DNA of 64,000 bases, from IMG/VR virus record IMGVR_UViG_3300028888_000055. The stretch is one strand, 5' to 3'. A program made the position numbers and the translations under genes. The DNA is from a virus (Duplodnaviria > Caudoviricetes). Of this stretch, positions 11,575-42,973 are shown in pieces. Every line of letters starts with the position of its first letter. Position 1 is the stretch's first letter. Below the pieces are notes generated by a model. The model worked only from the letters and a program-made list of their open reading frames with translations, did not search any database and was not told where the DNA came from.

Positions 11575-11575
11575 T

Positions 11576-19300: not shown

Positions 19301-22300
19301 CTGATCCTACAGCAGTAGCGGCTGCTACAGAAGGTGCAACAGAAGGAGAAGGAGAAGAAGGCGGTGAAGAAGGCGAAGGTGAAGGTGAAGAAGGTGAAGG
19401 CGAAGAAAACGATGACAATGATGATGGTGGTGAAGAAGACGACGGTGAAGGGGAACAAGATGTAGATTTAGTTCCTATCAGTGAAATGAAGGTACCATTT
19501 AAGAATAAAGTAGTAGTAGTATTAAAGTTAAAGAAAGACCAAATTGACTATGTACTAGAAAATGGATACCTTATTAAATCTGATCCAGTTGTTGTAACTA
19601 ATAAAACTACCTTAAAAACCGCTGTATAGAATATTAGAAATGATTTGATTGCAGGAGTAGCTGTTATACCCGCTGGAACAGAATTAGCTACAAAGATTTA
19701 GAACGGTGAGAATGATATAAGTATTCCTGCTGAATATATATATCCTAAATTTACTAAAGACGTAGTAAAGAAATCTAAAGGCAAATCTAAAACTCCTAGT
19801 ACAAAAAATAAAAATACTAAATTTGATGTAGGGGATATTATTACGATTAAACAATAGAAAGGTAAAAAAGCTTCTACTATTTAGTATAAAATATAGGATA
19901 TATCATCTAAGAAAATATTTAGTAAGAAAACAAAACGTTGGTCTACTAAACAAGTATATAAGTTACAACAAGTAGGTAAACCTGCTAATGTAAAAGAATG
20001 GACTGCGGATTTTGTAGATAGTAATTATAAGAAAGTAAAAAGTGCAACTGCTTCTAAAACTACTAAAAAGCAAGTATCTACTTTAGAGAAGATAATGGCG
20101 AGAGAAATTAAACCTGCAACTACAGGAGATACTGCTCCAGTATCTGATACTGAGTTATAGAATATTCTTAATTATGCTGATAACTAGGTAATGGGAGTTA
20201 AGTTATATTCTGGTTTATGTTTCAGAAGCGGTATAGGATTTAATGTTAATCCTAATACTGATACCTTTACTTTGACTTAGCTTGGCCCATTAGGAAGAGA
20301 TGAAGAAAATCTTTCTGATTTAAGTGGTCTTATATTGCCTTTCTTAAGCATAGTGGATACTAGTGGTAACCCATTACAGTATGACCATACTACAATGTCT
20401 GCTGTAACATCAGGAAATGATTTAGTAATATTATAGAAGGGTACGAGCAATGTTATTGGTAAAGTAAATAATCCAACTTTGCCTGTTAAATTGTTAAGTG
20501 AACTTGAAGTTACTCAAGCAAATCTCAGGTCATTATTAATGTTTAATAATGGAGATTTAAAAGAATTGCATAAAGATATCTATGGAGAGGTCTATAATCT
20601 ATATGCTAATAATTCAGCATTACTACAAACTACTAAAGATTTAACTAAGATACCTTTATTACAGAGGTTATTTTAGTTATCTAAAAATGCAGGTCCAGGA
20701 TAGTTTACTTTCAAATTAAAAATATTTAATAAAGATAACTTTGAGCCAGCCGTTGACAAAGTATTAAGAATGGGCAACTCTGCAGTTCCTAATTCTAAAT
20801 TATTAGTATATTCTATAGAAGGATGTATGGAAATAACTATGGGCGTATTTCCAAATCCTACAACTGTAGAGGCTTATGTATCTAACTTAGAAAAGATATA
20901 TAGGTCAATGAAAACAGAAGATAAAAATAAAGCACGCTTAAGTAAAGCAATAGCTTAGTTAAGGAATACTTTAACTGTAGTTTATTCTATAAATTCCAAA
21001 TCCAATAGTTTACAACAAACTACATACTGGGATTTAGGAGAATTTAACTTGGCCGAACATCGTGTAACTAATACAAAGAGAAGCCCAATTTAGTTTGCTT
21101 TAGGAAATGGAGAAACTCAAATGGATTTTGCTCAATTTAAGGAAGATCCAGATATTATTTGCTCTGATCCTTTCCTATTTACAGACGCTTATAAAAATGC
21201 TGGTTTAGTTGATCCTTCAACTGCAGGTAAAGCTGTTGTATTCTATACTACAGATTTAAATCTTTACTATGGTTTTGAGAACGGTAAATTAACAGTTGCA
21301 AATAGTAAAAAGAATGATTCATTTAAGAAGATAACTAAATCTAATAGTAATGAATTATACTCTTTATGGGCTACTGTTAGAGAATAGGCTGTTGCTTCAG
21401 GTAATATGGATGATTTAAATGCTTTAGGAGACAAAATTACAATGGTTGTTTTATCTCCAAAAGGCGTATCCTTAGAAGAATTCGTAACTCAAGCTATTAA
21501 ATTAAAAGAATCTATGAGAAATGGTGTAAAATATATTACTCCTGCGGGAAATATAAACACCTATACTAGAATTATAGAATTCTTAATTAATACTAATATA
21601 GAAGTAAAGAAATTCTTAGCCAAAATAAATAAGGATGGTGGGAAATCTTCTTATTCTTATGGCACATTATTTAGTGTTAATGGAACAAATGCAACTATTA
21701 ATTTCAACACTGTAGACGAAGTTAAATAGTTCCACGACGACTTAACATAGATGCTTTCTGGTATATTTACAACCATAGATTCTAATATTAATCTAGCTGA
21801 TTATGGTATTGGTAAATCTACATCTACTAAGAAATTAGAGAGTGCTTTAGGAAAACTATTAGTTGAAGTTATCGGAGACCAAGACTTAATAAAGGAATTT
21901 ATTGATAGTGGTAGAGTTGGGTATTCAGCTAAAGGTACTGGAAATACCATAAAAACAACTTTTAGTGGATCACATTGGTATGAAGTATTCTCTTCTATAG
22001 TTAGCTACTTTACAAATAATGTAAATGTTGATGATACTGAAATTGCTGAAAATAGAAAAGATTTCTTAAGTAAGTTAGAAGCTTTACGACAAGTGGACGC
22101 CATTGATAAAGAAAATCCATTAAAATTTGGAATCTTCTATAATCCAAGGTTTAAACCAAATCCTAATTTTAACCCTTCTAAAAAGGAAATGGCTTATCCA
22201 GCAATAGATCTCGAAGACCATTTCTATGTTTCAGTTGTACCTCAAACTCCTGACTTTGTATTACCCTTAGCAACACTAAGTAAAGTAAGTAGTACTTCAA

Positions 22301-23367
22301 GTTCGGATAATGTAGGCGCTACTGCTGCTCCAACTTCGGTAGCAAAAGCAGTGGCGGCTGCTCCTGCTGCACCTGCTTCAACTTCGGAAGCTGAAAAAAA
22401 ACTTGAAATATTTACTAGAGCTATTGATAAATACAAACCATTTTTAATTGATGTTTTAACTAACCCCACACAGAGAAATACTCCTCTTGATCCTACTTTA
22501 ATTCCACTTCTAGAACAAACCATAAATGATGTTATAGATTCAAAAAAAGAGCATTATATATAGATTTTAAAGACATCTACAGAGCATATTACATAGGATT
22601 TAAATACAAAAGGAGATAATTCTATATATGCAATAGAAGGAAAAATAACAGAAAAACTTCATGAATCACTAATATCATAGCTACTTATAGATATTATTAC
22701 AGAAGCCAATAATAGAATTCCAGACTTAAATATTTCTACTGTTGTGGTGGGTAATTAGGATGACGGCATTAGTACTCTTGAAAACGAGTTACATTCTAGA
22801 AAAAATTATAAAAATACTGATTTCAATAATCCATTAGCTGAAACATAGTTAGTTAAGGATGGTAAAGATTATTTCTTATATTATAAAGAAGACGGAATAG
22901 CTTACAGAGTTAAAATAACTATGTAGGACGGCTATGTACGAGATGTCAGAAGAAAAGTTATAAGTGCATCAGAATTTCCAGGGGCAGCTCCAACCGTAGA
23001 GCCAGAACAAAAATCTGATTCTTTAGAATTAATTCCTAAAATAATAGATAGCATTAATTCTGTTGAACCTCAAAGAGAAGGAGGAATACCAGAAGAAATG
23101 TTAAATATATTTAATGGAATTAAACAAAGTCTAGTAGAAGCTGTTACAGATTCAATCACTAGTGATCCTGAAGTCTTAAATGCAGCCGTATAGAAGTGGC
23201 AACTTGGTATGAGTATGTTAGAAAATCTAAAGAATATGTATTAGATAACTTCTAATTTAGAGGCTGTTATAGCTGAGCATATGAAAGAATTAAATTCGCA
23301 ACAAACTTCAGAAGACATTTGCGTAGATGCTCAAAACTTAGTAATTTTGTTGAATAAAATAATTTAA
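13396..23367 (+). CDS. Giant virion/ejection protein with SF1 helicase-like P-loop domain (3323 aa, TAG=Gln)
   Basis: Frame 1 from ATG 13396 to TAA 23365-23367 joins many fragments. Motifs GIPGAGKT (18031-18054), IFIDE (DE at 18361), TGDLQQ, AQGSE and YTTISRSK match SF1 motifs I, II, III, V and VI. Confidence 0.85.
19330..19460 (+). repeat. Low-complexity acidic linker (E/G/D-rich) inside the giant protein
   Basis: GAAGGT/GAAGGC/GAT-rich repeats encoding EGEGEEGGEEGEGEGEEGEGEENDDNDDGGEEDDGEG. Confidence 0.8.
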
Positions 23368-23380
23368 AATTAATATTCAA

Positions 23381-26300
23381 ATGAACGGACAATGTAGTTT
23401 AAATGATTCAAATATATATGCACTCTTAAATAAGTTATTAGTCCCAGGTAGAAACCTAGACAATACCTATAAAGAAATAGGTAAGACTTTAGTAGAAGCA
23501 GGATATGACTTATCTGAAGATAACAGAGAACATTTGGCAGAAGCAATGCTTACTTGGAGGAATAGTAATCTTCCAATAGCATTGTTTTCTCCTGGTTCTG
23601 AAAATCAAATATATCTAAGTGCATTAGCTGCTGATAGTAAAGAGTTGTAGTATGCTTTAACTTCTATTATTCATTGGAATGGAGATACTAAACCAGAAGA
23701 TACTAAATAGATGGATATAGTTGATTAGGATAATAACGACAATGACACTGTTGATATTACTACTCGTATTAAGGAAAATCAATTAGACGATATTTACTAG
23801 CAGGCAGCAGAAGCTAAAACTTTAATGTAGCAATCTTTTAAAAGAAATATTGTTAGTTCCTTATTAGTAAATTTTAAAATAGGCCAAATTCCAACAACTG
23901 CTGAACAAGTTAACAACAACATTGCTTCTTATAAAGAAGAATTGGTTAATACTATTGTTGATTATGCTAATACTTATGCAGAAAGGAATCTTGCTGTTTA
24001 GATGTATAACGAAGATGGTACTTTAAATATTAGCGGATATAGAACAGTTGAAGAATTAGCAAAGCATCTTTTTGAAAATACTACAGATATCGAACTTATC
24101 GATGCTTTTAAAATGCGAAATGATTCTCCAAAGTCTAGAGCATTTCTCGACGCTTTTAACGCTTGGATAATTCTAAATAACTTTGATATGCTATTGAAAG
24201 CAGAATTAAAGGATTCTGTCAACATTAAGAAAAGTCTTTTAGATGCTCAAGTAGATAAAGATGTTGTAAAATATTAGCTTGTAGATGAATCTGAATTAGT
24301 AAAAACTTGGAGAAATTCAGAGGATGTAAATGCTTTAAAAGAACTTGGTAATATAACTACATTGCTTATTTCTTCTACTCCCATGTATGATTACAATAAG
24401 GGTAAACCTTATTTACAACCTGGGAAGTATATAGACCCAAATGTCTTTTTCTTTGCATTTGCTGATATATTAAGAATACCAGCTATTAAGAGGATTTCTG
24501 AAAACAAACGCTATAATTCTTTGGAAATTATTCCTCAAATTATAGATGCTGTTTTAGCTACACCTTCTTTGGGACCTAATACTAATCTGATACACAGTAT
24601 AATGTATTCTGTTCAGTAGCACTTCTTTAGAACTTCTGGTAGAGGAGCCGACCAGGACTATTCTCTAGCAGAAATTATACTTAAGGATCAGAATTCGGAA
24701 GGTTATTCTGTAAATAAAAATTATTTGAATTATGTTGCATCTGCTATAGATAAAACCATACGAAATCTATACTTAACCTATAATTCAAATAGAGAAACTG
24801 GAGTAATTGAAACTAGAGTTTCTACGGATGTATCAGCTTCTAATAGCGAATTTGATATTAGAAATTCTATTGAGAGCCCAAATAAGATGCTCCTTCCTTC
24901 TTAGAGAGACCAGTTAATAAATACATATGTTCTTAACAATAAAGAATACTATGATACTTTATCTGAAGAAGAGCAAGAAAAAATTGGATATGACCCACAA
25001 TTGAGTTCATATCCAAGTTTATGGTCTATATCTACCGCTATTACTATGGGAGGGGCTCCTGCTAAATTAATAATACGCGTATTTAATGATATTACTTCTG
25101 ATAGTGGTCAAAATAATAAATCAATTCATTCTATAAGTATAGAAGATGAAAATGGAAACGTATCTACTATATTTAATAATAAAGATGGTTTTCTTCCAGA
25201 GACTCCAGAGGCAATACTACAAAATGTAGAATCTGTCATAATGGATATGATAGATGATACATTAAAGCAGAACTTCAAGACTAATCCTGAGTTCTTTAAT
25301 GCTTACATGTAGAATCTTCCTAATAAGGAAAATGGGCAACAGTAGTCGCATTTAGAGGGCTTATTATACTTAATTCCAATGGCTAATAGAGTATTAATTA
25401 AACATACTTTAGAAGCCAAGAATTTAGCAGAAAATACTTCATTATTAGACAAAGTATATAGAATCGATCCTATCTATAAATTTTAGAATGGAAAACAGAA
25501 ACCCTATTTATCCCTTTAGAAACGATTAAAAGTAATAATGGATACAAAGGGTGATAAGACTGTTGTAAAATTCTTAGGAAATGCTAAGATGGTAATTACG
25601 GGAGAAATTGCAAAGTCTACATCTAAGAATATTGAAGGTAATACTGTTTCTAACAATGGTTTAACTAACCTTATGAGTACTGTCGCTTTAGTATTTGAAG
25701 ACTCTAGAAAGAGATTAGCTACAGAGCAAGACGACAGTATGGAAGATCCTCACTACCGTAATTCTTGTTTACGAAATTGTGTTTTTGTATTACATCCTGA
25801 ATTTTTGCATGGAGTAGTGCAGAAACAAGGAGCTAAAAGTAAAGACGGATTATCTAGTAAATTAGATAAGAAATTTAATGTTGCAGAATCCCTAGAAAGC
25901 GCAATAAAATTTGATTTCTTAATTAACTATGGTTTAGATCCATCTAACTCTTAGCAAGGTATAATCAGAATTCAGCCTACGGATTATTCTGATAAGACTA
26001 CTGATTATCTTCTTGAATTAAATGGAAACATTCCAATTGCAAATAATAAAAGTTTAGTTGGAATGTCTTGTGCCGAAGTAGAAGAATTGCACAGGGTTCA
26101 AATGGATAGTATGTATAGTACTATGCGTAACAACATAGGAAAAGACTACCATGATACATTATTTACTTTTGTATTAGCTAATGCTGATATATTGGGGTTA
26201 AATCCATAGTATTTAATGCAATTGGATCAACGAGGCGACTATTCTACATATTATACTTTTTATACATAGGTAGTATTTAAAGCTATTAATGATAATATTA

Positions 26301-29300
26301 ACAATTTACAAGTAGACGGCAAAACTTATACTGACCCAAGGAAGTTATATAGAGATTTAGCCAGAATAAATAATACTACAGTAATTACTAATGTACATTT
26401 TGATGATAAGGCTAAAGTCTTAACTACTAATAATATTATTGATTATTATTTCCGTGTATTTGGGAATAAGGGAATATATGATTATGTTCTTAAGAGAAAT
26501 CAATTGCGCTTTATCAAGGACGTTTCTTCTTATGTTAATTTTAGATGGTCTACTCAAAAAGGCATTGACCCTATCTTGGAAAATGCTGTAAAGAGACTAG
26601 TAAGTAATGGTACTATCGGCGATGAAGAAATGTTCATACGTAATTGGGTAGACCACAGGACTGGCGATCTCGTATTAGCTAAACTAAATACAGACGAAGG
26701 GTCTATATCTTTGACTAAAACCGACTTAAAGAAATTAAAACTTTCTGATCTAATTTATGGCGATAATTTTGGATTTGAATTAAATCCAATTCTTAGAGCT
26801 TTTTTTGCTATTGATACAATGGTATCACAGCAGTTTATTAGTTCTACTGTTGGAGGTAACTTCGTACATAAAAATAACTTTGGAAAAAATCCTGACGTCA
26901 ATCCTTTATGGGAAAATGTAAAATTATTCGAGGAAGGTACTGAAGAATTTAATATTGCTTTAAATGAGTACTTAGATGCGGTAGAAGTAGAAGATGCGGG
27001 TAGACTGTTAACTCAGTATAAACGTATGGTTATTTATCCTGCAACTATGCACCCATTATACCAAATGGCATTAGAAGGCGTTCCCACATATTATAATATA
27101 GCAAGTATAGATGATGTTCAAGCTAATACTTGGGATTATATTAGTGGAGATTATGATAGTGACGGGAAACAAAAGACTATAGATGCTCATGACGGTTCTG
27201 GTATGGTAGATCCTGGATTTGCTATCCTTGAGAATGGATCATTACAAGGTGCTCACGTAGGTATTGATAAAAAACCTATTGGACACAGTATGGATGATTC
27301 ATATATGGTTGAAACGGAGCTAAAATACGCCTTATTCGCGATTACTAATTGGAAGGTTAGGAATTCTAGTAATAGAGTAGGGGAACATTATGGTATTAAT
27401 TATGACCTTATTCGTAGAAAGATGGGTAGCTCTGAATATGGACGAGGATGGCCCGCTGATTTGGATATAGACATTACCACTAAATTTAATGGCGAGAAAA
27501 TTGATTTGGATGACTTACAATCTACATACTTCTATGATCCTAAGCTTGACAGTTATTTCCAAATTGTAGGAATACAAAAATTACCTGATGTTAAGAATGG
27601 TTATATATTTACATACTAGCAAGTAGATGAATTTGCAAAACCTATAGGAAAGCCAATAGAAGCAGCATAGCCACTTATAATTGATAGCAATTATTCATTG
27701 TGGAAAGCTTTAGGTGGCGAATGGTCTTGCTCGATTTATGATGGTAAACTCGTAGAAGATGAATCATCTAACTATAATTGGGCTTACTTTGCAAACAATA
27801 TAGGATTTATAAGAACAAAACAAAATCCTATAGCTATGCATGAGATAGATTATACTGAAAATGATTTACTTGATGAAAGTGATATTACTACCGATGATAA
27901 TGGTAAAAAATCCTTCCCAGTAGTTTTAACTTAGAAGGATATATATCAACCTCTTAAATATTCAGGAATACAATATGCAGTAAATGTATCTGGTATTAAG
28001 AATGGTCAAGTGAACACAAATCCAGTACAATCTCATTATGACCAGAATCCTTTAAGGAGTTTCCGTATTTTGACTAAACATCTTGGAGTCCAAATGAATG
28101 CCGATCACCATGCTGATGATGCAGAACTTACTGAGATGTCTCAGGTAATTTCTGCTTTGGAAGCTAACGGTTGGGCCCATGATCTAGTTAAATAGATTTA
28201 CGAAGACCTGGGAAGTATAGTATTGTAGACCTTAGAACAAGAAATTAAAGCTCTGAAAGTTTTCTTAAAGACAGGTGACAATACAGAAATATATCGAATT
28301 GTAGGTAAATCCTTTATAAAATCCTTTGGTAAGGATGGAGGGCAAGATACTCTTACTGCTAGTATGATGAATAATATCATCAAGGAATTAAACGGAGAAG
28401 ACAATATAGAAAATATTGAATAGAAATTGCCTTTCAGTGACACTTCTGTATTATCCTCTGTAGTTGGTAGTATTACTTCTAACATCAATAAGACAGCTAT
28501 TAAAAGAAAATATTCTGGTTTGGCTGCCGTCCTTGTACCTGCATATGATATTATCAAAGTTTATAAACAAAGACTAGAGGATGGTTCAACGAAAGATGCT
28601 CTTAATGGTGACATCCTAAAAGCCGATACTGATCTAGAAGCTCAAACAGACACAGGCGATTTAATGTCAGCTAAGAACCTAGAATTAGGATTATCTTATA
28701 TAGTATATGAAAATCTTGCACTAGACCCACAGCCATTAAAGAAAGTCACAATTGACGGTAAAGAGTACTATGTAGGGCATGATGAAAATAGTATATTAGT
28801 TTTATTTGATAAATATGGCGCAGTTCAAAACATTCATATGCCTTATTGGGTGCAAGAACAATATGCTGCTGGACAATTACCTAATTTAACTGTTACATTG
28901 GATACAATTAACGACTATAAGAAGTTTAAGCGTTCCCAATTATAGTTTAAAGAGGATTATGCAGCAGGTAGAAATCTATAGCCATCTAAAACTAGTTTCT
29001 AGGTTAGAGAAGAAGAAGGCACTATATACAATATATTTGACGTTGATGAAATCGAACAAAAAATAAAATTTAGAGAATTTTATGATGCATTTAAAAAGAT
29101 TCCTGTAATGAATTACAAGAATTTCTTTAATAAAAATGATGCTTTGTTCGATATAATCAATAGAAATCCAAATCCTAGAATAGTATCTATATACACTAAA
29201 ATTAGAAATTTAACATCTAAAGACGTATTAACTACTAATGATGATGTAATGATTTAGAAGTATATGGATATATTAGAAGTGGAGTTTGCTAATTAGGTAG

Positions 29301-32300
29301 TAATGGCTTTCCAAAACTTGCACGAATAGCATATAGTGCATATGGGAGGAGAAACATTTAATGTCATTCCAGAAACAGTCGAAGTTAAACCTGCTGAGTT
29401 AGTTGTATCTAAAATATATGCAACTAAATTTGGAATAAAAAAGGGCGATAACTTAAATACTATTGATCTTTAGTATTTCATCGACCAACAAAAAGAAAAC
29501 TTCGTACCTAAAACGGAATTATATGATATAATGCTCCGCAGAGATAATGGAAGACATACTTATGTCCTATTGAGTAAACATAAAGACGAGTTATTAAATA
29601 AGCATTTTGTAAAAGTAAATCCACCTACTCGCGTAGACTCTATTACTGGCGATGTAATAAGGTTAAACGAATTAGAAGAGGATATGATGCCATTTAATAA
29701 CTGTGAATTATATGTTAAAGACGGAATAGAAGTAATTGTAACAGATGATCCTGCTGATTTAGTAGACGATGCTTTTGAGTATTCTTCATATGATATAAAC
29801 CCATCTAGTAAATTTGGATTAGAGGACTTAAAAATATTCGATACAATTCCTCTGAAGAGAATAGCACTAGAGCAGAGAGAAAATTATATTAATAATTTAG
29901 CTCAGAAAAAGTGGACTTCTTTTTAGCAGTCATTAGAATTTATAGCTGCTCGTATTCCTGCTCAGGCCTTGCAATCTTTTATGCCTATGAAGGTAGTAGG
30001 ATTCACTGATTCTGAAGAAAACAAAGCTTATGTTTCCCATTTTTAGACTTATCTCCAAGGTTCTGACTACGATATTGATAAAGTATATTTAATGGGTAAC
30101 GAGTTTACAGAATCTGGAATCTATATTGGCTGGAGTCCATTCTTTAACTTAAATAGTTTACAGAAGTTAAAGATTTCCCAGGAAATTCCTATGCCAAATG
30201 GTTTAGAATACTCGCTGGTTTCTAAGCAAGATGCTGCTGAAAATGTCTAGGATATAACAGAAGATATAATTAATCTTAAATTAGCAGAACTTAATTACGG
30301 ATAGGATAGTATTTAGTATTTAACTACAATTAAGAACCTTCTTGTTAAGATTTAGTAGAATAAAAATTCAGAATTAGCAGTAGATTATGCTTCATTAGCA
30401 GACACTTTCATAAAAGAAGGTATTGCTCATGATCCTACAGCGTCTTTACAGTTTGTTTAGGATGAATCTGAGAGAATACTTGATATGATTAATAGGCATT
30501 CTTCCTATTTTAAAACAGTTAAGAATAAGGATATGCGCTTAAAAATGACTAAGAATTCTGTCACATCCAAGATGTATAAAACTGCTAATCTTCCAGAAAA
30601 TACTTATGCTGCTTATAGTCCTATTGAGATGGGAGAAACTAGAGAAGCTGCCACTAAGTCTTAGATGGGTGAAGCTGAGAAAGATTACACTACCTTTAAT
30701 CCAGTGTCTAAGTTTATGATGCATTATCAAAACATGATGGGTAAAGATGGTATTGGTATATCGGCGGTAGGAGAAAAAGTATTATTCTGTTTGTAGTTCT
30801 ACTTTAACGAAGCTGCAAGACTAGATTCAAATTTAGACGATCTTAATTCTGACGAATTTAAATACTAGAGAAATGCATTCTTCCATAAGTAGCTGGATAT
30901 AATAGCTTCTGGTACGGATAGAATGACTGTAATTCGCAACCTTATTGCAAATATTAATTTGAGAAATAATGATCATATATGGGCTCAAATTATTAATTCT
31001 AATGTAGCTGAATTAGAGAGTTTAATGCAAACAAGCCAGGATAAAGAAAGGATTGCATTTTTACAAGATATGATATTGCTTCAATTAAATTATATGAAAG
31101 ACAGTTCTCTTGTAAATAGTTCTCTTCTTTCTGCGGCAACTGATAATGCTAAAGAGCTTATCCTTGCAAAAATTAATGCTAACCCTGATATGATGAAAGT
31201 TTATACCTATGGTATAATATTAGGAATTGACTTTACAGATATAGCAAACTTGATGACATCTCCTACTATAAATGCTGTTAATTAGTTAAGTGATGTTAAT
31301 ATATTTGAGAAGGATAGCTTAGTATCTGCCATTACATCTTCTTTAAATTCTCTTAAGAAGGGTATAAATCCAGGGGAATACCTTAATACTACTGATATAG
31401 AAATAATCGAAGACTTACTTTTTAAAGTACCAAACGGAGACTCTAGAAGACTAGATTTACAGGAGCTTATTCGTAAATCCAAAACATCTAGTGTAGAAGG
31501 ACATACTACATTTAAGCAAGATTTAGATAGCGTAAATAAGGGAGAAGTTAGTTGGGAGCAATTTGCAGCAAATTGGTCAGTTAAAATCTATAGCATCATT
31601 AAGCTAATGGACGGCTTAAGTGGTTCTAACCCTTCTCCAAGTATTCAATAGCTTTACAGATATTTATTTAAGATGCAAGAATGGTTAGATATCGTAAAGG
31701 ATATTGACTAGAGAACCCTTCTCACCTTTAAGGATATGTTAGATTCAGCAGAAGAATTTGTTACTTTTGGTGCTATTTTGGGTATTAATTAGGGCATTAG
31801 AACTGATGTTGATGGTAAACTAGCATATTTAAATAGAATAGAGAATGTATTTAAAAATAGATTCGATAAAGGAGCTTCTACAAATGTAAGTGATATTCTA
31901 GCTGCTAAACCTTATTATGTAAAATTCTATGGCGGAGAGCAAGAGGCTAGAAATTACATAGAAGCTACTGTTAAGAAGGCGGATTCTTTAGGAATCTATA
32001 ATGATTTTAATGTACTGCAATTTCTATTAGATGATGAGTATAGAGCAATCGCCATTGATGCTTATGACTTAATAAAAGGTACTATTAATATTCTTGATAT
32101 AATATCGAGAGTACCACATTTCCAGGCAATGATAGACTCTAGTAGCGTTGACTTTTACCTATTCAGTAGTATTAGTTCTGTATTTAATTTAATGTACAAT
32201 ATTTCACATGATCTATTATAGAGAGGTGAATTAAGTTCATTATCTGTTAAACAAAGAACTGACTTTACTAGAGACCTTTAGAACTTCATACAATCTCAAA

Positions 32301-33319
32301 TTGCTTTAAAATACTTCAAAGATAGAAATGTCAAAATTCCAATTGGTGAAGGAAATTAGGTAATTAATAAAGACGGTGCATTGGTAACTATTGAGCAGGA
32401 AGAAGCTTTAGATTTAGGAACAGTAGAAGGACAAGCCGCCTTTAAGCTTTGGATGGAACAATCTGTATTACCAAATTTAAGGTTAGGAGTTGTAGAAGAC
32501 GGAAATGATGAGTATATTCAACGTTCATTATTAACTAACAAATTCATACAAGCTCTTACTTTGAATTCTACTACTAGAACAACAACTGGAGACGAAAAAG
32601 GTGTTATATCCTTACCTATTAATATGTCCGTATCGACAAGTGAATATAATGAGAATATGTTCGTATCGTATCTTACTGACTTTAATAAGTTAAAAGGTGT
32701 AACTTATAATGGTATTCCAGTACAATCTTTATTCTTCTGGTATAATTTAATTGTAAATAGAAATGTCCAAAGCCGAGATGCTTTAACTAAAATATTTAAA
32801 TCTGCTATTAGAGATAATAGAGGGGATAATGATATTAATGATTACTTTAAGTATGTTGGCGACATGGATAAAAGACAATTATTCTCTTTAGAAGACTTCA
32901 ATATGCAAGATTTATTATTATCTTGTGCTCCAAAAGTCACTAGAGCATGGCTAGTAAATGAGAAGTATGAGTCTAATTAGTATCCTACATTTGTGAAAAG
33001 CTGGGATTCCGACACTGGCACATATAAAATATATAAACTAGATCCTACTACTTTCGCGAAGCGAGGCGGGGATGAAATGGATGAACTAGCTTATGCTCAG
33101 ATGGAGGACGCAGGAGAATTAGACTATGAAACCAACGAATTTACTCCTGTAGGATATAGAGAATATACTATAAGTCCAAGTATGAGTAAAGCAGAAATGG
33201 CTAATTTATATCCATTCTTGCCTTATAATTCTCGAGAATTCAAGACAAAGGATGTAATAAATCAATTAAGTAGATTATTTAAACAAGGTAAAATTTTTAT
33301 TTATAACGATTGTGGCTAA
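23381..33319 (+). CDS. Virion-packaged two-barrel DNA-dependent RNA polymerase, crAss-like (3312 aa, TAG=Gln)
   Basis: Frame 2 joins ORFs 23381 through 32993 and ends at TAA 33317-33319. Catalytic region RIPAQALQSFM...LQGSDYDIDK (DYDID at 30065-30079) is absent from the ORF track because of flanking TAGs. Also PTDYSDK, DAHDG and GKDGIGISA. Confidence 0.93.
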
Positions 33320-36206
33320 TAATTGTATTCCAAAAATAATAATAGGTGGCTAGGAATTTGTTGGTTCCTAGCTGCCTGCCCATTCGTCTCTTACACAAAT
33401 ATTGTAGAGCGTATTGGCTAATGGTAATAATGCTTCAGAATTAAATCAAATATTATCTGATATTTCTAGTCTTGATTAGGTGTAGATAACTTCATTTGAT
33501 CAAGTTGCTTAGATAATACCAGGTAATGCTACGTTTATGGATATATCTAAAAAGATACATTCTGAAGGACGTATATATTCTCCAGTAAATAAGTCTATAG
33601 AAGAAGCTATAAGTATTATAACTAAATATGGTAACTACCCAAAAATATTATGGTTAAATGGTGATATAAAGTTAAATGGGGCTTCTATTCCTAATGTCAT
33701 TATTACACCAAATGGAGAAGATATTATAGTTCTTAAATCGAATGATCCTTTTGAGATAAATATAGCATTATAGGAATACATTTATAAAACATTACTATCT
33801 ACAAGAGCAAGAAGTTTCTTGAGTCTTATAGAGACCGCTATGGGTAAGAAAATTACTCAAAAAAATAAAGACTAGATTGATTTAGTATTTAAAAGAAATC
33901 CTGCTATAGCTGCTATAGGAACTAAAGAAGAATATAGACAGTATTTATTATCTATATTCCCAGAATCTGTAGAAACTTCAATCTATTGGCATGGTTCAAA
34001 TTCTGATTTCTCAGAAGGATTTTAGAGTGCACAAAAAACTGAAGGTAGCGGCGCACCTGAAGTATAGGATAGAAATGATATGTATTTTAATAAATAGGCA
34101 TATGCTTCTATTCAATATGTAAATGGTCAAAACAGAACTGCACCAGCAGACGTTAATGGTTTTGCTCATTGGAATAAATTATATTGGGAATTAAAAGAAA
34201 TCCTTTCTAATGGTGTATCTGGAGAAAACTGGAGAAATCAAGTAATTGATACAAGTACTATTAGAAAAGAAATTCCTAATAAAAGAGGTGAATTTGATCC
34301 TAAAAGAAAAAAAGGTAAGACTCTAGACTAGAGAAAACGAGACTATGGCTATGGGGAAGGAGATGAAGAGACTGAAGCTTTCTTCAGAGAAGTTTTTGGT
34401 ATTGAAATAAATGACCCAAATAAAAAAATAACTTTTAATGAATGGGTTGCTAAAAATAAAAAAATCTTCAAAGATATGGAGGGAGAGGCCCCTGGGCTCT
34501 ATCCAGTAATTCTCAATATCAAGAAACCTATTAAAGAAGAAGGTTAGGATACCTATTATGAAGGTCACCGTAGACTATTTACTAAAGCAGCTAAAAAAGG
34601 TAATGATGCTATTATAGGAACTCATACAAAAAATGAATTTGGGTCTGATGTAGTGGTAATGCTCAATCTTGAAGACAATCCAGAAGAGAGAGTACATTTT
34701 TTAGGAACTACAGCAGATTTAGAAGCATTTGCAGCTTGGAAACGACAAAATCAACTTTCAACTGATAATATAATTGAAAAAATACTACGAGATCCATTTA
34801 TAAATGAATTTCTCGATTCTGAAGGTTCTGCTGTTACTGATGGCTTTGCTACTCTTAGAGATGAACTACAAAGTGTAGTACATCAAGCAATTAACGACGA
34901 GATTAGTACAGAACACTACTTTAGATTAGAGAAAGTAATTAGTGGAGGGTAGACTGGAGTAGATACTGCAGGTGTTACTATAGCAAATGAATTAGGATTC
35001 GCTACTGGAGGAACTGTACCCGTAAATGGTTTAAGAGAAAGATTAAACGGTCAGCCTAATAACATATCTAAAGAAGATATGGTTAAATTCGGATTTGAAG
35101 AAATACAAGAAGTCACTGCTTCAAATCCTTATACTGACAGAACGAGAGCCAATGTGGAAAATTCAGATGGTACTGTTTATATCTTAGCCAGTAAATATCT
35201 TGCTAGTGGAGAAGAATCCGCTGGTTATAAAGCTACTTCAAAAGCTGCTATGGAACTTGGAAAACCCTTTGCAGTTGTGCATAGTGCGTAGGAATTAAGA
35301 GAATTTGTTATAAATAATAACATTAGAGTATTAAATATTGCAGGTTCTAGAGAAAGTTCATATTCTCCTGGGGATGCAGAAAGAATAAACGGCATTATTA
35401 AAGAAGGCCTTACTGCACAACCTTGGATAACAAAAAGTAGAGTCGAATCTTCTTTAGTTACTTCAAAATACCCAAGTGCAAACTACAACACTGATAATAT
35501 GAGTGTTTCTGATGTGCAAGATGCTCTTAATAATCGCTCTGCTAATATGATTTCTTACTATGGAAAAAATAAAGCTAATCCATCTATTCCAGGCAATACT
35601 TTTGAGGCAATTTTAACTCGTCAAAGGACTGCCACTACTAGGTTTAAAAACTTATATTTTTGGACACAAAAAATAAAGGTTGGCGATATTGTGGCTTTTA
35701 AGAAAAGCAAAGATAAAGATTCTAGTGTAGTTTTTGTAAAAATAAAAAGTGTTAATCCTATAGACGAGGATGCTAATCCTTCTGAATGGTCGAGCAAGGA
35801 AGGATGGTCATAGGCTTATTTTAAGGATGTAGTCATTCCAAAAATTAGAGCAGCAAAAAAGGAGGGCCTGCAACCAGTGTAGATAGAATATGAATATGTA
35901 GGAGCTATTATTAATGATGACTTAAAGAATGTTTAGGGGACGAGTGAAACTACTTTTACAATATAGACTCCTATAGGGCCTCTTGAATTTAGAAACCAAA
36001 AGGATTTAGCAAATAAGTTAATAACTATTAGAAAACAAATAGTTGGAACATAGAATTAGGAAGCCGAAGAAAAACTATAGAATGATATGAATATGTATGC
36101 CCAAGCTATAGTTACAGGTATTCTTCCTAGTGGAAGGGATATAAATAATGATCCTGTCGAGATGTAGACTTTTATAAATACTGTTATCAATGACGGAAAC
36201 TGTTAA
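33312..36206 (+). CDS. Polyvalent protein: ART-PolyVal-like ADP-ribosyltransferase + SLOG (cpYpsA/MoCo-carrier-like) + ASCH domains (964 aa, TAG=Gln)
   Basis: GTG start overlaps the RNAP stop; frame 3 runs to TAA 36204-36206. ART-like: IGTKEEYRQYL.SIFPES...YWHGS...LYPVILNIKKP...GNDAII...VHFLGT. SLOG: KVISGGQTGVD...RTRANVENSDGT...VLNIAGSRES. ASCH: FEAIL...RTATTR...KVGDIV.F...KEGW. Confidence 0.8.
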
Positions 36207-36211
36207 TAAAT

Positions 36212-38149
36212 ATGGCTTAGTGTATAAATAAATTAGAAGTAGAATATCAACAATTATTAGAAATGACAGGGCTAACGCCTGCAGAATTGGACTTATACAT
36301 AGGAGAATACTATCAAAAGAATGGGAAGTGCCCCACTGTAGATAGATTCCTACGTACAACTAATACTACAGCGGCTTTTGTCAAGGAATATAATTTAAAG
36401 AAATGTGGCAAAGGATGGATAGCATAGGACGACAGACCTATTGATATTCCATTGATTAACTCTAAATACCGAGATATTGAAGTGTCCGCAATAACCTCTA
36501 ATATTAGCCCTACTGTTTACATGGCCAAAGTAAGAGCTATTTAGAATAGAGATTTGGACACACCTACAACTTATTTATTACCAACCACCATTGAACAAGT
36601 AAAAGAGCTAGAACCCGAGGTGCAGCTCGAGGATGGTTCCTACCTTTATAGGCAAGGTAACAGAATTTATAGAACAAATTGTAAAGTTACTAGTCCTCTT
36701 TTACTTACATATTATCCAGACTTTGCCACTTATTCGGAAGCTCTTGCAGCTCCAACAGAAAAACCCAGTTACGATAAAAGTGTAATTGACATCATTAGAT
36801 TAAATAGAGGTAAGTTATTTAATGACCAGTATGTAAAAGTAAATACTTCATTAAATTTACCAGGAGAAATTAAGTTCTACAAGAACTTTAATTATCCAGT
36901 ATTTGAATTCAATGATGTTGTTGGAGACCGCGACTATTATATAAATTCTTTAGGAGTTTTATTAATAAATCCTGATGCTGTAAATAGTGATTTAGATTTA
37001 GAAAGAATTATTTTATAGGCAGAAGGCTTTGATGACTCTCAGATCGAAACTATTTTATCTGGATTATCTAATTATGAAACTTATGAAGCTATTAGACAAA
37101 CAGATAATAGTTACTTATTACATAAGGTTAATAATGGAGTAGATATTAATAGTGTAGCTAATACTATTTCTCCAAAAACCCAAAATAATGGAGAAAATCA
37201 TCTAGGACAAATTCTTGATAGGCTAGAAGAGTTATATGGAATAGGGTTCATAAGAACTAGTACAGCAGAATTGCAGTCTAACAATTTTACTGCTATTATA
37301 CCTGATGCTACTAGAGTAAACGCGTTTATATATTAGGGACAAATTTATATAAACATGGATAATGCTACATCTGATTCACCTATCCATGAGTTAGCTCATA
37401 TATTATTAGGAGCTCTCAGAAGTACTAATCCTAATATATATTATGCCTTAGTACAATCAGTTGAACAACTTCCAGATTATCAACAAAGACTTCAATAGTT
37501 CCCTAACCGAACTAGACAAGATGTCAATGAAGAAATCTTCGTAGACTTGTTTGCAAAACATTATACTGATGGTTTAAATCTTGAAATTGATTAGAACACT
37601 ATGGATGATATGGAATATGAAATTGAGCATAATATAGACTCAGGCATATTCCCAAATAAAAGTACTACTACAATAAATTTAGCAGAACTTATGAATAAAT
37701 CCTTGAATGAAATAATGGATGTATTTGGAACTGCTATTAACAGGGATACTTTAATAAAAGCTTATAATAGCGATACTGCATATTGCCGTACAATATCTAA
37801 TATAAAAGAAGAGCTTTTAAAGAGAAAAGAACTGGAAGAATATTGCTCTGATGGAGGACATCATGCTCAAAGAATGATTAACGCTTACCATAGAGGTCAG
37901 AACTCTAATCCTGCTAAATTTTTAAAAGGTCGTATGGCAGATAATGCGAAGGATTTAGATACATTCATAGAGAATGTTAAAAGATCTTTCCATGAAACAG
38001 AAAGGGGGACCTTTGATGTTAATGGAAGATTTTATAAAAATCCAGATTCCTCTTACGCACAAAATGCTAGAGGGGCAAAAGATATAAAGGAGCTCTGGAA
38101 TGAATACAGATCTTATGTAATGTAGAACTATCCAAACACAAATATATAA
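36212..38149 (+). CDS. Zincin-like metallopeptidase-domain virion protein (645 aa, TAG=Gln)
   Basis: ATG GCT TAG TGT start; frame 2 runs to TAA 38147-38149. AFIYQGQIYIN...PIHELAH (HExxH at 37385-37399) with a downstream NEE third ligand. Confidence 0.85.
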
Positions 38150-38155
38150 TAAATT

Positions 38156-41100
38156 ATGAGTACATGTGTATATAAACTTGGAGGAAGAGTATTTGGTTCA
38201 GAATTGGACTTGGATAACTTCTTATATAATTATCTTGATTCTTTTGATGCGGATGCTATACCTGATCTTGTATTTAGTACACGATCTCCAAAAGCTAACG
38301 TACTTTCAAAAAAATTAGACGATAAAGCAGAGGAGTTAAAGGCTAACGTAGTTAAAGCTGCGAAATTAAGAGCTAGAAGAGACGAATTCGTTAGTGAAGC
38401 AGAAAGCGCATTAATAGCAAATTATTATGGTGCTAATATGGTATTATCTACTGTAGAAATTGCTCCAAATACAAGAATAACTCCAGAATTCATTCGCTCC
38501 AAATTAAAGGCTAACTTATTTAATTAGTGGACTGGACAACCCTCTGCCAACTCAACAGGTATTAGCAAAAATATTGCTGATATTTTAGCAGCAGCGGGTT
38601 ATACAGAAAACGGAAGACAATTAAAAGCTGGAGATATTATTACAGAATAGACATATGCTGGCAATTCTACTAACATAGAGGATATCTTTCCTAAATGTAA
38701 TGATATATTTGAAAATTATGTGTGGCCATATTGGTCAGGTTTAGGAAAAGTAGGTACTGCTATGCACCGTGTGGCAGAAATGTTCTGGTTAGGAGAAAGT
38801 ACTATTTCTATATTAAATGATTCAGTTGTTATAACTGGAGATGATAGTTTTACTGGTGATTTATCCAGAGTTTCTCCTGTTCTTTCTAATGATGCTATAC
38901 ATGAGTTTCTTACATATTTAAATAGTTTAAAAACTGTTTTACAGGCTAGACATGGAAAAAACTGTAAGTTTAGACCTGAGTATCCAGTAGTTGCTAAAAG
39001 CTCTCTCCCAGTAAAAGGAAATCACAAGGCTCATATTATAGGTATTATTGACTTGGTAGTAGAAGACGAATAGGGAATACCTCATATCTATGACTATAAG
39101 ACATCTGATAAGGATATGGACGAGTGGGGCGCAATTAAGAGAAGATCTTATATGGCCCAGTTAGCTTTATATAGACGAATTCTTGAATCATATGGCATAG
39201 ATGTAGAAGGTACTACCCTAGGAATTTTACCTATAAATTTATCATAGTATAATATAACGAGAGATGGGTCACCAAGAGTTAACGGTATAGAATGTCCTAA
39301 AGATGCGAGAGGTCTTCCTTATATTGAAGATCTTTCTAGAGAATAGGCTCTACAACCTTTAGGAGAATTAACTGCAAAAATTAATAAGTTAGTATATGCT
39401 GAAAATCAGCTCGAAGCTTTACCTACAAACTTTATTCGAAATATTGAAACTCATTTCAAAGAATTCTTTCCAAGTTATACCTTTTAGAAAGAATACGATG
39501 ATGCTGTAAAAGCAGGTATAGAAGAAGAAATAAAAGAAAATTTGAATAATGGTAAGTATATGTTCCCAAAGATTCCAGGTGAAAAAGAGCGTATGGAATA
39601 TGATAAGGAAGAAATCTCTTAGCATATGGAAGAATTTTATAAAAAATATGTTACTTAGAATGACATAGCACAAAAGCGTAACATATTTTATATAAAACAG
39701 GCTATTAGGGAACAAGACCCTGCTCGACTTCCAGCAGTATCTTCTATTAACTATGGAGATAAGGGTGAATGGTTTATTCCAATGTTCTCTAGATACTGTA
39801 ATGGTTCATGGGAACCTGTAAATAATAGTGCTCTCGAGAGCTTAAATATATTAGCTTTAAGAAATAAAATTTCTGGGCAAGTTAACTTCTTTATTTTAAG
39901 CGGATATGACTTGAGTCGTAAGGTTAAAATGAAAGAGGGTAATACAGTTCTAGGATAGCACGTTAATGATATTACACCACAACATGCTGGCGTTATCCCA
40001 CTAGAAGCTGATTTAGGAAATATTGAGTTAATGAAAGCTATGGTAGCTATTAATTTGGCATCTAGATCGGTTCTTCGTAAAGGTGATAAGCTCGGCGAAG
40101 TAATGGCGATAAATATTTGGAATTAGCAAGGTAGAACTACCTCAAATAAGCAATTAATGGATAACTTTAATGCTTTATGTGATTACTCTCAAACAACTAT
40201 GCCTAATAATTTCGCAAGTGGTAAAATAGAAGTAGCTTCTGCAACTCAAAAGGTTGCTACTACTATGCTTGAATTAGGATCGTTAGAAAAAGTAGGAGTT
40301 TTGAATCGTATATATTCTAAATATGAAAAGAATTTAGTGGCTTTAGATATTGAATATAATACATTAAATAGACTTCGTAGAGAACTAGAGGATGCTTATC
40401 CAGATTTAGCAGAAGGAGAAGTAGACATTAATACTCCACAAGGAGCAATGTATTCTACTATTATGACTGCTATTTCTGAAATGAATAATGCTTATTATAC
40501 TCAGGAATTAAGGGACAGTTCTTTTGTATAGCTCAATGTTAATACCCCTGAAATGATGAAGTCTTCTAATTTAAGAAGGTTAAGAGCATTAACTAACAAT
40601 GCATTCTAGAGATTACGTGATAGAATGAATAGAGAAGCTGCCGAATGGAGAATTCATTATGATAAATTAATAAAAGCTAAAGGTTATAGTAGAGGTGAAA
40701 AGTGGATTACTGATAATGATTCTCGTCTTTACGAAAATATGATTATTCATAATAAAGAATAGGGTATTCTTAAATTCAAGAATCCTTGGGATAGAACAAC
40801 GGATTTAACTGATGAAGAAAGAGAATTCTTGAAGTGGTATTTGGATAAGTAGGATCAACTAAGATTTGAAGAGGATAGTACAGAAGAAAGTCGCTAGTTA
40901 AGAAGAGCAGATTCAAATAGTCAATATTTTGATGTTCCTTTAATGGAATCTAAAGGACAGGAAAAAATATTGAATGGTAGAACTAAAGGTTTAGTTTCAT
41001 GGTTTAAGCGTACTATACAATGGTGGAGACATCCAATTCAGAATGCTAAACGCCTAGAGGCAAAAGTTTTAACAAATGAAAAAGCCGATGAAGCAAAGAA

Positions 41101-42916
41101 AACAGCACAAGCTTTTAGAATTATGGATGTGTTCGAGGAAAGCGAAAACGAAGTAACAAGAACTAAACTCCTAAAAGAACACGATCTTGACTATTTTACT
41201 ACAAGTGTTGAAAAAATATTCTACGCTTATTCTTTCTCTAAGATTAGAAAGAGTGTATTGGACTCTTACATGCCAGTGTTAAAAGGTATGTATGTAATGC
41301 TAAAGACAAATGGTATGTTAAATAACATTGGTATAGAACAAATGGAAAAATACCTGGTAAATTATGTTTCAGCAAAGATAATGAATCGTTCATTAGTATC
41401 AGACGAATATAAAGGTTTAGCCCATGTTATGAGTAAACTTAGGAATGTAACAAGTGAAGTTACACTGGGTATTTCTCCAAAAGCATTCTTATTCTAGCTT
41501 ATCGAAGGTGTATGGAAAAACAATTCTCGTTCTATTATAAAGCCTATGGGTCTTAATTAGTTCGGACACCAAGAATATAAGGACGCTTTGGTATGGCTTC
41601 TTGGAGATGCGAAGAATCACTTTAAAGTAGTATCAATGGGAGAACTTATTAACGAACAATATGGTATAAATGACCAGGATATTAACGTGTTAGCAGATAG
41701 ATTGCGTGAAGGACAAGATGCTTTAACATTTTAGGGCAAATTAATGTGGATGGTTAGTGCTCCAGATTATATGAACCGTATGGCTATATTTGTTGCTTAG
41801 ATGAAAGCAGATGGTTGTTTTGATGCTCACACAATGAACGATGATGGATTTACAATGTCATATGATTGCTCTAAAGATTCTCGCTTTAATAAACTTAAGT
41901 TTAATAGAAAGAGTAGAGAAGACGTTGATTCTAGAGATCCAGAATATCTTAAGTAGCTAGCTATGTATAAGAGAATGGTAGATGAATTCAATGCAGAAGG
42001 TTACAAAATTGTAGACCCTAATACTGGATTGGAAAGAAGCATGACTTATAATGATAAATTGCCTAGAGCATATACTAATAGAGAAGCAAGAAGTATAAAA
42101 TCATTGGCCGATGCATTATATGGTTATTACAACCATGAAGACTAGTACCTATTAAAGAGTTACTTATTAGGTGCTTTATTTACACAATTTAGAACTTATT
42201 GGTCATCTCTTAAGAATAGATGGTGGTTAGATGGAGGTATTTACAGTCAAGGCCATTGGGAACATATGAAAAATTCAAAAGGTGAATTGATGTATAAAAA
42301 AATAATCAATGAAGGTCAAGAAAACGAAAGAGTAATTCTTATTCCAGAAAGTCAATTAAATGGCGAAATTCTAGAACCATACATGGATTGGAAAGGCTCT
42401 TATTAGGAAGGGTATTGTTAGACAGTCTTAAGTCTCTTTAAAGATATGTTTAGTCCAAATGAAGATGACTTGTCTATGTCTGAAAGAGCTAGACAATGGT
42501 GGAAAGGGAAAGAAGGTATCGATGATACTGTTGCCTACACAAGAAGAGCCAATATGAAGTTAATGATTCACGATTTATCAGTATTCTGCTTAATATAGTT
42601 AATATTTGGTACAATCATTATGCAATTGTTCAAAGACCAGAAAAAAGCAGACAAGACCAAAAATCTAACTGCTATGGAAAAAGTATTAAGATCTGCAGAA
42701 AGAGTAGGACTTTATTCTATGATTTAGTCTGGCTCTGACCTTGGAATAGGAGATGTCTTCTCACCAATGACCGATTGGACTCCTCCTAGCTTTGCAGTAG
42801 CTAAAGAAGCTTGGAAAGACATGGGAGAAGTAATGACTGGAGATTAGAATTTCTTTAAAGCAGTGGTTGATAACGTAGGTTTCTTACGTCAAACTAAGAC
42901 TTTATGGTCACTTTGA
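38156..42916 (+). CDS. Large virion protein with PD-(D/E)XK (RecB-like) nuclease domain (1586 aa, TAG=Gln)
   Basis: Frame 2 joins ORFs 38156, 38720, 40157, 40943 and 41963 and ends at TGA 42914-42916. Motifs GTAMH, E, GIIDLVV, IYDYKTS and QLALY. Hydrophobic segment near 42575-42632. Confidence 0.85.
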
Positions 42917-42928
42917 TTAAATACATAG

Positions 42929-42973
42929 AAAAAAAAATGGGCCAACACTCCGAAGAGTGTTGACCCGTTTTTT
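42929..42973. terminator. Bidirectional intrinsic terminator between the convergent genome arms
   Basis: A-tract, then TGGGCCAACACTC-CGAA-GAGTGTTGACCCG, then a T-tract. The - strand loop is C(UUCG)G. Confidence 0.9.

Follow-up and report, generated by a model that had tools for sequence, protein, structure and literature searches.

Conserved terminal cysteines in the RNA polymerase cargo block of crassviruses suggest a head-to-tail disulfide chain

Introduction

The closest described systems to the locus analyzed here are the virion RNA polymerase (RNAP) cargo blocks of cultured Crassvirales, such as g067-g066-g065 of phi14:2 and gp47-gp50-gp49 of crAss001 (Drobysheva et al.; Bayfield et al., 2023), and these three proteins of each phage have been detected in virions by mass spectrometry (PMC10172136; bioRxiv 10.1101/2020.03.07.982082). 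The present study concerns five consecutive genes, A to E, in a 64,000 nt stretch of the Caudoviricetes record IMGVR_UViG_3300028888_000055 (hereafter the window, with coordinates being those of the whole window unless prefixed by another record), and a rule followed by the cysteines (Cys) at the ends of the encoded proteins that is the same in phi14:2 and crAss001. A to E are members of this block as it is known from the Crassvirales, and they are probably packed and injected. The block of the cultured phages resembles that of the window in that giant, Cys-poor proteins are encoded after the genes for the tail tip and the channel-forming cargo, whereas it contains three proteins (links) compared to five in the window, where a SLOG protein (C) and an HExxH protein (D) follow the RNAP and precede the last link. 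The window also differs in the recoding of TAG to glutamine (Gln) and in the tails that follow the Cys of A and D. Terminal Cys are not mentioned in the papers on phi14:2 gp66 and the crAss001 virion (bioRxiv 10.1101/2020.03.07.982082; PMC10172136), and literature searches on crAss with terminal cysteine, disulfide, or cargo did not find the rule described.

In other crassviruses, the same modules occur in the same order joined by a peptide bond, as B+E in the Intestiviridae (~4100-4250 aa) and as A+B in the Suoliviridae (~4460-4490 aa), and the phi14:2 preprint noted such fusions and suggested their cleavage into components (bioRxiv 10.1101/2020.03.07.982082). In contrast, the separate products of the window would be connected by a reversible side-chain bond, and the fused forms are without that Cys pair. 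The virion RNAP of N4-like phages is of a different type, being single-subunit and T7-like. In the ejection operon of these Schitoviridae, Cys is strongly suppressed in the giant virion RNAP (gp50/gp71) and in two ejection proteins (PMC11445570). The ejected proteins of N4-like phages are essentially Cys-free, termini included, and it is this complete suppression that makes the terminal Cys retained by crassviruses stand out. We know of no covalent head-to-tail link between the ejectosome proteins of T7 or P22. As proposed for the crassvirus cargo, T7 gp14/15/16 and P22 gp7/16/20 are ejected before or with the DNA in a partly unfolded state via the portal and tail channel (PMC10172136).

Results and Discussion

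Terminal cysteines of the five window proteins

Translation of the region with table 11 gave no long open reading frames (ORFs), and reading TAG as Gln revealed tightly packed giant genes on the + strand. Under this code, the run comprises gene A (first link, 3323 aa; 13396..23367), gene B coding for the virion RNAP as recognized from its catalytic motif (3312 aa; 23381..33319), gene C with a GTG start overlapping the end of B (964 aa; 33312..36206), gene D coding for a putative zincin with an invariant HExxH motif (645 aa; 36212..38149), and gene E, the last link, supported by a Pfam match (1586 aa; 38156..42916), all on the + strand. At the junctions from A to E, stop and start overlap or are 0-14 nt apart, with both Cys codons within ~60 nt.

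Codon reading placed every terminal Cys cited in an earlier note on this DNA at its reported position, likewise on the + strand. At the A-B junction, the donor (C-terminal side) is A Cys3309 (TGC; 23320..23322), the 15th residue from the end, and the acceptor (N-terminal side) is B Cys5 (TGT; 23393..23395). The B-C junction combines B Cys3311 of 3312 (TGT; 33311..33313), the second-last residue, with C Cys5 (TGT; 33324..33326), and the C-D junction combines C Cys964 (TGT; 36201..36203), the last residue, with D Cys4 (TGT; 36221..36223), which is preceded by a Gln3 encoded by TAG. The D-E donor is D Cys545 (TGC; 37844..37846), identified by codon reading and homology and followed by 100 aa, and its acceptor is E Cys4 (TGT; 38165..38167). 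At the outer ends of the run, A contains no Cys before residue 1511 and its last is 15 residues from the end, hence an N-terminal Cys is absent, and the last Cys of E is residue 1478 of 1586, so that a C-terminal Cys is absent. This bears out the earlier observation that the first protein lacks an N-terminal Cys and the last lacks a terminal one. Protein C contains just two Cys, one per end.

Two of the four donors are followed by further residues. In A, the Cys precedes a conserved 14-residue tail, and the equivalent Cys is at -1 to -5 in other clades (described below). In D, residues 4-545 aligned end to end with 549-aa orthologues in which the equivalent of Cys545 is the second-last residue, identifying Cys545 as the conserved C-terminal Cys. 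Residues 546-645 form a 100-aa sub-lineage-specific tail (37847-38149) that two database relatives also have in frame. In a relative with 92% identity (L001), the D gene stops 25 aa beyond the Cys, and a small ORF of its own encodes the tail (L001:14600-14845). When a middle link was defined by a Cys at position 3-7 and another in the last five residues, B (5 and -2) and C (5 and -1) followed the rule directly and D by homology only.

The five proteins contain 35 Cys in 9830 aa (0.36%) compared to 1.14% across 178 ORFs taken as background from this and related DNA. The description of these proteins as otherwise Cys-poor therefore holds for the run overall and applies less well to D (0.93%) and E (0.63%). 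With the Cys of each protein placed randomly at its own count, the joint probability of the six strictly terminal sites was ~3e-11.

Conservation in relatives

The 92% identity relative retained the whole Cys pattern and was the sole match in a single-protein scan of IMG/VR. A search of INPHARED with the window proteins identified one distant relative, MT835470, with the remaining matches confined to the SLOG domain, and a PHROGs scan gave one match, for the first ORF only. MT835470 (~30% identity) uses the standard code. Its first protein is 2967 residues long with a single Cys, located five from the end, its middle protein carries Cys at position 3 and as the final residue only, and the single Cys of its last protein is at position 3. 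An alignment-based IMG/VR scan yielded 44 loci with 27-38% identity, which fall into about seven clades. All clades had a Cys at -1 to -5 of the first protein, Cys at 3-5 and at -1 or -2 of the RNAP, one or two inserted proteins with both Cys, and an N-terminal Cys only in the last protein. The residues neighboring the terminal Cys varied between clades, and in the family alignments these Cys were among the few invariant columns. The five links of the window represent the longest form among the genomes read and are shared with its clade 2 relatives.

The earlier note had proposed comparing the frequency of terminal Cys in orthologous RNAP-cluster genes with background, and the rule withstood this comparison. 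When the C-terminal 1200 residues of B were used as query in an exhaustive HMMER search, 150 representatives (<=50% mutual identity) were obtained, including 119 of full length. Cys was present at positions 2-7 in 116/119, in the last five residues in 117/119, and at both ends in 114/119, compared to a chance expectation of ~2% per end from the 0.35% Cys content of these proteins. In the D family, the C-terminal Cys was found in 23/23 database homologues and the N-terminal Cys (positions 3-5) in 21/23, the two without it resembling truncated gene calls. All ten database homologues of E had a Cys at positions 3-7 and none had one in the last five residues, and 4/4 homologues of A were without an N-terminal Cys and kept the Cys at -15, down to 30% identity. 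Among all proteins read, the N-terminal Cys was absent from 13/13 full-length A or A+B proteins and Cys was absent from the last five residues of 18/18 E or B+E proteins.

Cultured crassviruses, fusions, and insertions

The rule holds in phi14:2, where g067 has a single Cys as its last residue, g066 has two (position 3 and -2), and g065 has one (position 3), such that all four Cys in 5398 residues are terminal. In crAss001, gp47 has one Cys (-3), gp50 has Cys5, Cys1334, and a Cys at -9, and gp49 has one (position 5). DAC15, cr111, and cr116 displayed the same Cys pattern.

In crAss001, DAC15, cr116, and the IAS virus, the gene for the first link and those for the other two are on different strands. 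As the rule is kept in this arrangement, the Cys rule rather than gene order would determine the order of the links, and the earlier proposal that the chain threads through the tail in gene order needs correction on this point. A DNA-level junction motif or translational coupling as the source of the rule was rejected because the rule persists in these four phages.

Gene fusions removed Cys in pairs. Where B and E are fused in the Intestiviridae (LMMB, cr3, and crAss002; 4070-4245 aa), the A-B Cys pair alone was retained, and where A and B are fused in the Suoliviridae (cr4 and cr10; 4460-4491 aa), the B-E pair alone was retained. The fusions were confirmed by blastp, and no Cys pair was present where the proteins are joined, although a single Cys, residue 2180, is near the estimated fusion point of cr4. 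Conversely, inserted links carried both Cys, as in C and D of the window, the clade 2 proteins of 333 and 549 aa, and a ~800-aa protein of clades 3-7, and several of these had no Cys beyond the two terminal ones. In nearly every genome read, n separate proteins thus had 2(n-1) junction Cys and two free ends. The exception was the IAS virus, which is considered further below.

Several observations on individual genomes touch on this block. The annotated start of crAss002 gp33 (NC_055828, L051:15672-15770) is probably 32 codons too far upstream, as an internal Met gives an orthologue-like three-residue start with Cys3 and a terminator-like hairpin is present just upstream. The cr10 record (NC_055875) is linear, and an ORF of at least 1206 aa with a Cys5 that is missing from its annotation was identified 3' of gp32 (L055:23540-27130), reaches the end of the record, and is expected to be the last link. 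In the IAS virus, gp55 (L052:14156-16669) is a SLOG protein homologous to part of C that has Cys at both ends and is encoded upstream of the RNAP. Finally, C1-like proteins of the Intestiviridae and a small neighbor upstream of the RNAP block have a lone C-terminal Cys in a basic tail (L050:3828-7327, L051:4977-6650, and L057:3806-4705). No N-terminal Cys matching this lone Cys was found in a neighbor, and the partner of these proteins may be another copy of themselves or a structural protein.

A proposed head-to-tail disulfide chain

On balance, the probable explanation of this pattern is a head-to-tail disulfide chain, A-B-C-D-E, constituting a pseudo-polyprotein cleavable by reduction. A linear chain is suggested by the two free ends, the balanced Cys counts, the loss of one pair per fusion, and the gain of two Cys per insertion, and a disulfide would be the simplest chemistry given one thiol per end and the known inter-subunit disulfides in crassvirus particles. 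The latter were described in the tail and portal vertex (PMC10172136), where in crAss001 they staple structural rings and hubs and, unlike the bonds proposed here, do not involve cargo or chain termini.

From the observed positions, conservation, and arrangement of the Cys, we infer a bond whose chemistry, timing, and pairing specificity, together with the threading and release of the cargo, would be as follows. Each junction-facing end of A to E would expose one Cys, and in the virion the Cys near the C-terminus of one protein would be disulfide-bonded to the Cys located 3-6 residues into the following protein. The product would be a linear, unbranched thread of ~9,830 residues with uniform N-to-C polarity, and the scarcity of other Cys would limit mispairing. 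Bonds placed near the chain ends would keep the thread thin enough for unfolded passage via the portal and tail channel, which fits the proposal that the cargo exits partly unfolded and N-terminus first (PMC10172136). After entry, the links would be cut in the reducing host cytoplasm, releasing the RNAP together with its partners.

Structure prediction was in line with accessible ends. A moderate-quality model of a 549-aa D orthologue had a mean predicted local distance difference test (pLDDT) score of 66 with the last six residues <50, and both Cys-bearing ends were predicted to be coil outside the folded core. Modeling of adjacent ends, also proposed earlier, was carried out for the C-terminal part of D with the N-terminal part of E from the standard-code relative L006 and passed weakly, scoring 0.32 vs 0.00 for the best of three controls, with contact agreement between runs of at least 63% and a partner pLDDT of at least 59. 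The mark used was reached by 58/80 solved complexes and 2/110 mismatched pairs, and the passes with scores <=0.60 comprised just 7/80 solved complexes plus both passing mismatches. The D-E result is therefore weak and would be wrong more often than right unless the pairing was likely beforehand. The residues flanking the Cys were basic at the N-termini (50 Lys/Arg and 11 Asp/Glu) and mixed at the C-termini (43 and 42; Fisher p 1e-4), such that the charge complementarity of the ends is partial, and as the sequences behind the p value are related, it provides a hint only.

A number of points weigh against the disulfide chain. Three to five of the 119 RNAPs are without one of the Cys. In the IAS virus, there are three C-terminal and two N-terminal Cys and the RNAP start is without a Cys, although the junction contains ambiguous bases and was counted neither for nor against the rule. 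Two of the window links are not strictly terminal, as A has a 14-residue tail and D a 100-residue tail, and the latter would form a side branch on the thread. The cytoplasm of the Bacteroidota host and the gut lumen are reducing, leaving the timing of disulfide formation conjectural, and the disulfides seen in crAss001 virions could be products of aerobic purification. In addition, specific pairing between neighbors is presumed, as any C-type end joining with any N-type end would fit too. Lastly, the bond would follow from the comparative pattern and a D-E complex prediction that attained a weak mark only.

Alternative explanations

The ends might meet head to tail with the Cys bridging a shared metal such as zinc or stabilizing a non-covalent junction. 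The same arrangement of Cys would suit any C-to-N junction, a metal site could form in the reducing cytoplasm, unlike a disulfide, and packaging of several copies of each protein has been proposed for crAss001 (PMC10172136), from which four thiols could be pooled per site. However, each end provides a single Cys with no conserved second His or Cys ligand nearby and freely variable flanks, and two thiols are insufficient for a stable tetrahedral site, making this reading unlikely. The earlier suggestion of disulfides or shared metal sites linking C- to N-termini stands as the most economical account of the comparative pattern as far as the chain is concerned, although the two chemistries are inseparable by sequence.

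Each terminal Cys might instead act independently, either forming same-end homodimers or polymers or anchoring its protein to the portal, tail barrel, or channel-forming cargo. The many structural disulfides of crAss001 virions, the lone C-terminal Cys of the Intestiviridae C1-like proteins without an obvious N-terminal partner, and the unequal numbers of C- and N-terminal Cys in the IAS virus would be compatible with such roles. Independent Cys would nevertheless leave unexplained why the first link is missing its N-terminal and the last link its C-terminal Cys, why the counts are balanced in almost every genome, and why each insert carries both Cys, such that this explanation was also judged improbable.

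Intramolecular closure of the middle proteins by an N-to-C disulfide, with the two single-Cys proteins pairing together, would agree with the presence of one Cys per end in B, C, and D. Each fusion would then orphan two Cys, yet both are kept, with the N-terminal Cys of B staying in B+E fusions and its C-terminal Cys in A+B fusions, and a loop of >3000 residues would impede threading; self-closure is therefore very unlikely. True peptide ligation with the Cys as nucleophiles, by intein-like trans-splicing or transpeptidation, would produce a real polyprotein, and an N-terminal Cys is the classic nucleophile while natural fused polyproteins exist in other crassviruses. This route was considered extremely unlikely as the Cys are too close to the start (3-6 residues) and the end (1-5 residues) to accommodate split-intein halves, a Pfam search of A to E found no Hint or intein domain, and separate proteins of the expected mass were reported in crAss001 virions (PMC10172136). 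Chance, composition, or a nucleotide-level signal such as translational coupling at packed gene junctions would suit the short or overlapping junctions and close Cys codon pairs of the window, but has a practically negligible probability given the random-placement value for the window, 97-98% conservation against ~2% expected, and the persistence of the rule where A is on the other strand, distant from the start of B.

Features of the proteins and their relatives

The disulfide chain would connect proteins with diverse predicted domains. A contains a P-loop/SF1-helicase-like domain at approximately residues 1525-1690 (Pfam AAA_30, 1e-6), and although blastp of A against gp47 or g067 gave no match, its position, size, and Cys pattern agree with them. 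In B, DYDID at residue 2229 aligned with 1361-DFDID, the catalytic motif of phi14:2 gp66, and the blastp matches of B to gp66, gp50, and cr4 gp26 were centered on this DFDxD-type motif of two-barrel RNAPs. C has a cpYpsA/SLOG domain (Pfam PF12694, 6.8e-22) and shares homology over its N-terminal 200 aa with the clade 2 version of C, a 333-aa protein that has two Cys only, both terminal. The HExxH motif of D was invariant across 15 sequences and is predicted in the D model to lie on a helix after two strands. When the D model was compared with the PDB by Foldseek, no entry matched at E <=0.001 and zincins were the best rows at E ~0.04, and searches found no Pfam domain in B or D and no PHROGs match in D. 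The ~800-aa middle protein of clades 3-7, considered as a possible C+D fusion, matched D in its C-terminal 220 aa alone and had no blastp match to C. E has a PD-(D/E)XK nuclease domain (Pfam PF12705, 8e-8), and by profile comparison of its family with Steigviridae E (hhalign probability 96.8%, E 2.2e-10, ~470 columns) it is the orthologue of crAss001 gp49 and phi14:2 gp65. The possibility that D and E represent a split form of the last Steigviridae protein was not supported, as hhalign of the D family with Steigviridae E gave a probability of 0.1%.

The RNAP gene of many relatives is split by an insert of ~1 kb located exactly inside the catalytic DYDID motif (L018:8692-9751). The insert was also present in L002, L013, L015, L019-L027, L031, L032, and L041 and contains a 238-aa ORF with a LAGLIDADG-like motif, while the gene is uninterrupted at DYDID in L012, L014, and others; the equivalent site in the window is B residue 2229 (~30065). 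At least 14 of 31 short RNAP database matches start just after the motif. From its sequence the insert looks like a mobile intron-type element, and an Rfam search of it returned no family, including no intron family.

Gene layout of the window

The + strand late genes (1-43000) have 8-56 in-frame TAG codons per gene, TAG is almost absent from the - strand genes (43000-64000), where recoding is hardly needed, and the sign of the GC skew flips near 44 kb. A GC-rich hairpin with a T run (42937-42970) is situated directly 3' of the E stop and is likely a terminator that closes the cargo operon.

Upstream of A, two Cys-free proteins (1611 aa and ~605 aa from Met12) are encoded on the + strand (6739..13393, identified as ORFs). 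By position only, they may be counterparts of the channel-forming cargo proteins crAss001 gp45/gp46 and lie outside the Cys chain; gp46 has 0 Cys and gp45 has two internal Cys, and a PHROGs search with the two window proteins gave no match. The second was examined as a sixth chain member as its 616-aa ORF has a Cys at position 5 when read from the first possible start (11543), a start that overlaps the preceding gene. The MT835470 homologue aligned from Met12 (11576), so that the early Cys is probably untranslated and the protein Cys-free, and this candidate was rejected.

Significance

Crassviruses are the most abundant human gut phages, and the proposed chain would bear on how they pack and inject megadaltons of protein, including a giant RNAP. 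The Cys rule already serves as a practical check of starts and gene boundaries in recoded genomes, having flagged the likely wrong start of crAss002 gp33, and the chain idea is directly testable on the cultured phages phi14:2, crAss001, and DAC15. If true, a disulfide tether would account for the fixed stoichiometry and order of separate giant proteins, for their Cys poverty, and for the interchangeability of fused and split genes, and would suggest a route for new effectors to join the cargo. A more tentative extension, possible but short of probable, is a modular loading code in which a Cys after the start and another before the end let any protein join the ejected thread by disulfides, at a place between the proteins of the RNAP module. 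The phage may thereby inject SLOG-containing polyvalent and HExxH effectors as part of a single N-to-C thread of ~1.1 MDa that the thiol reductants of the host would separate into active parts.

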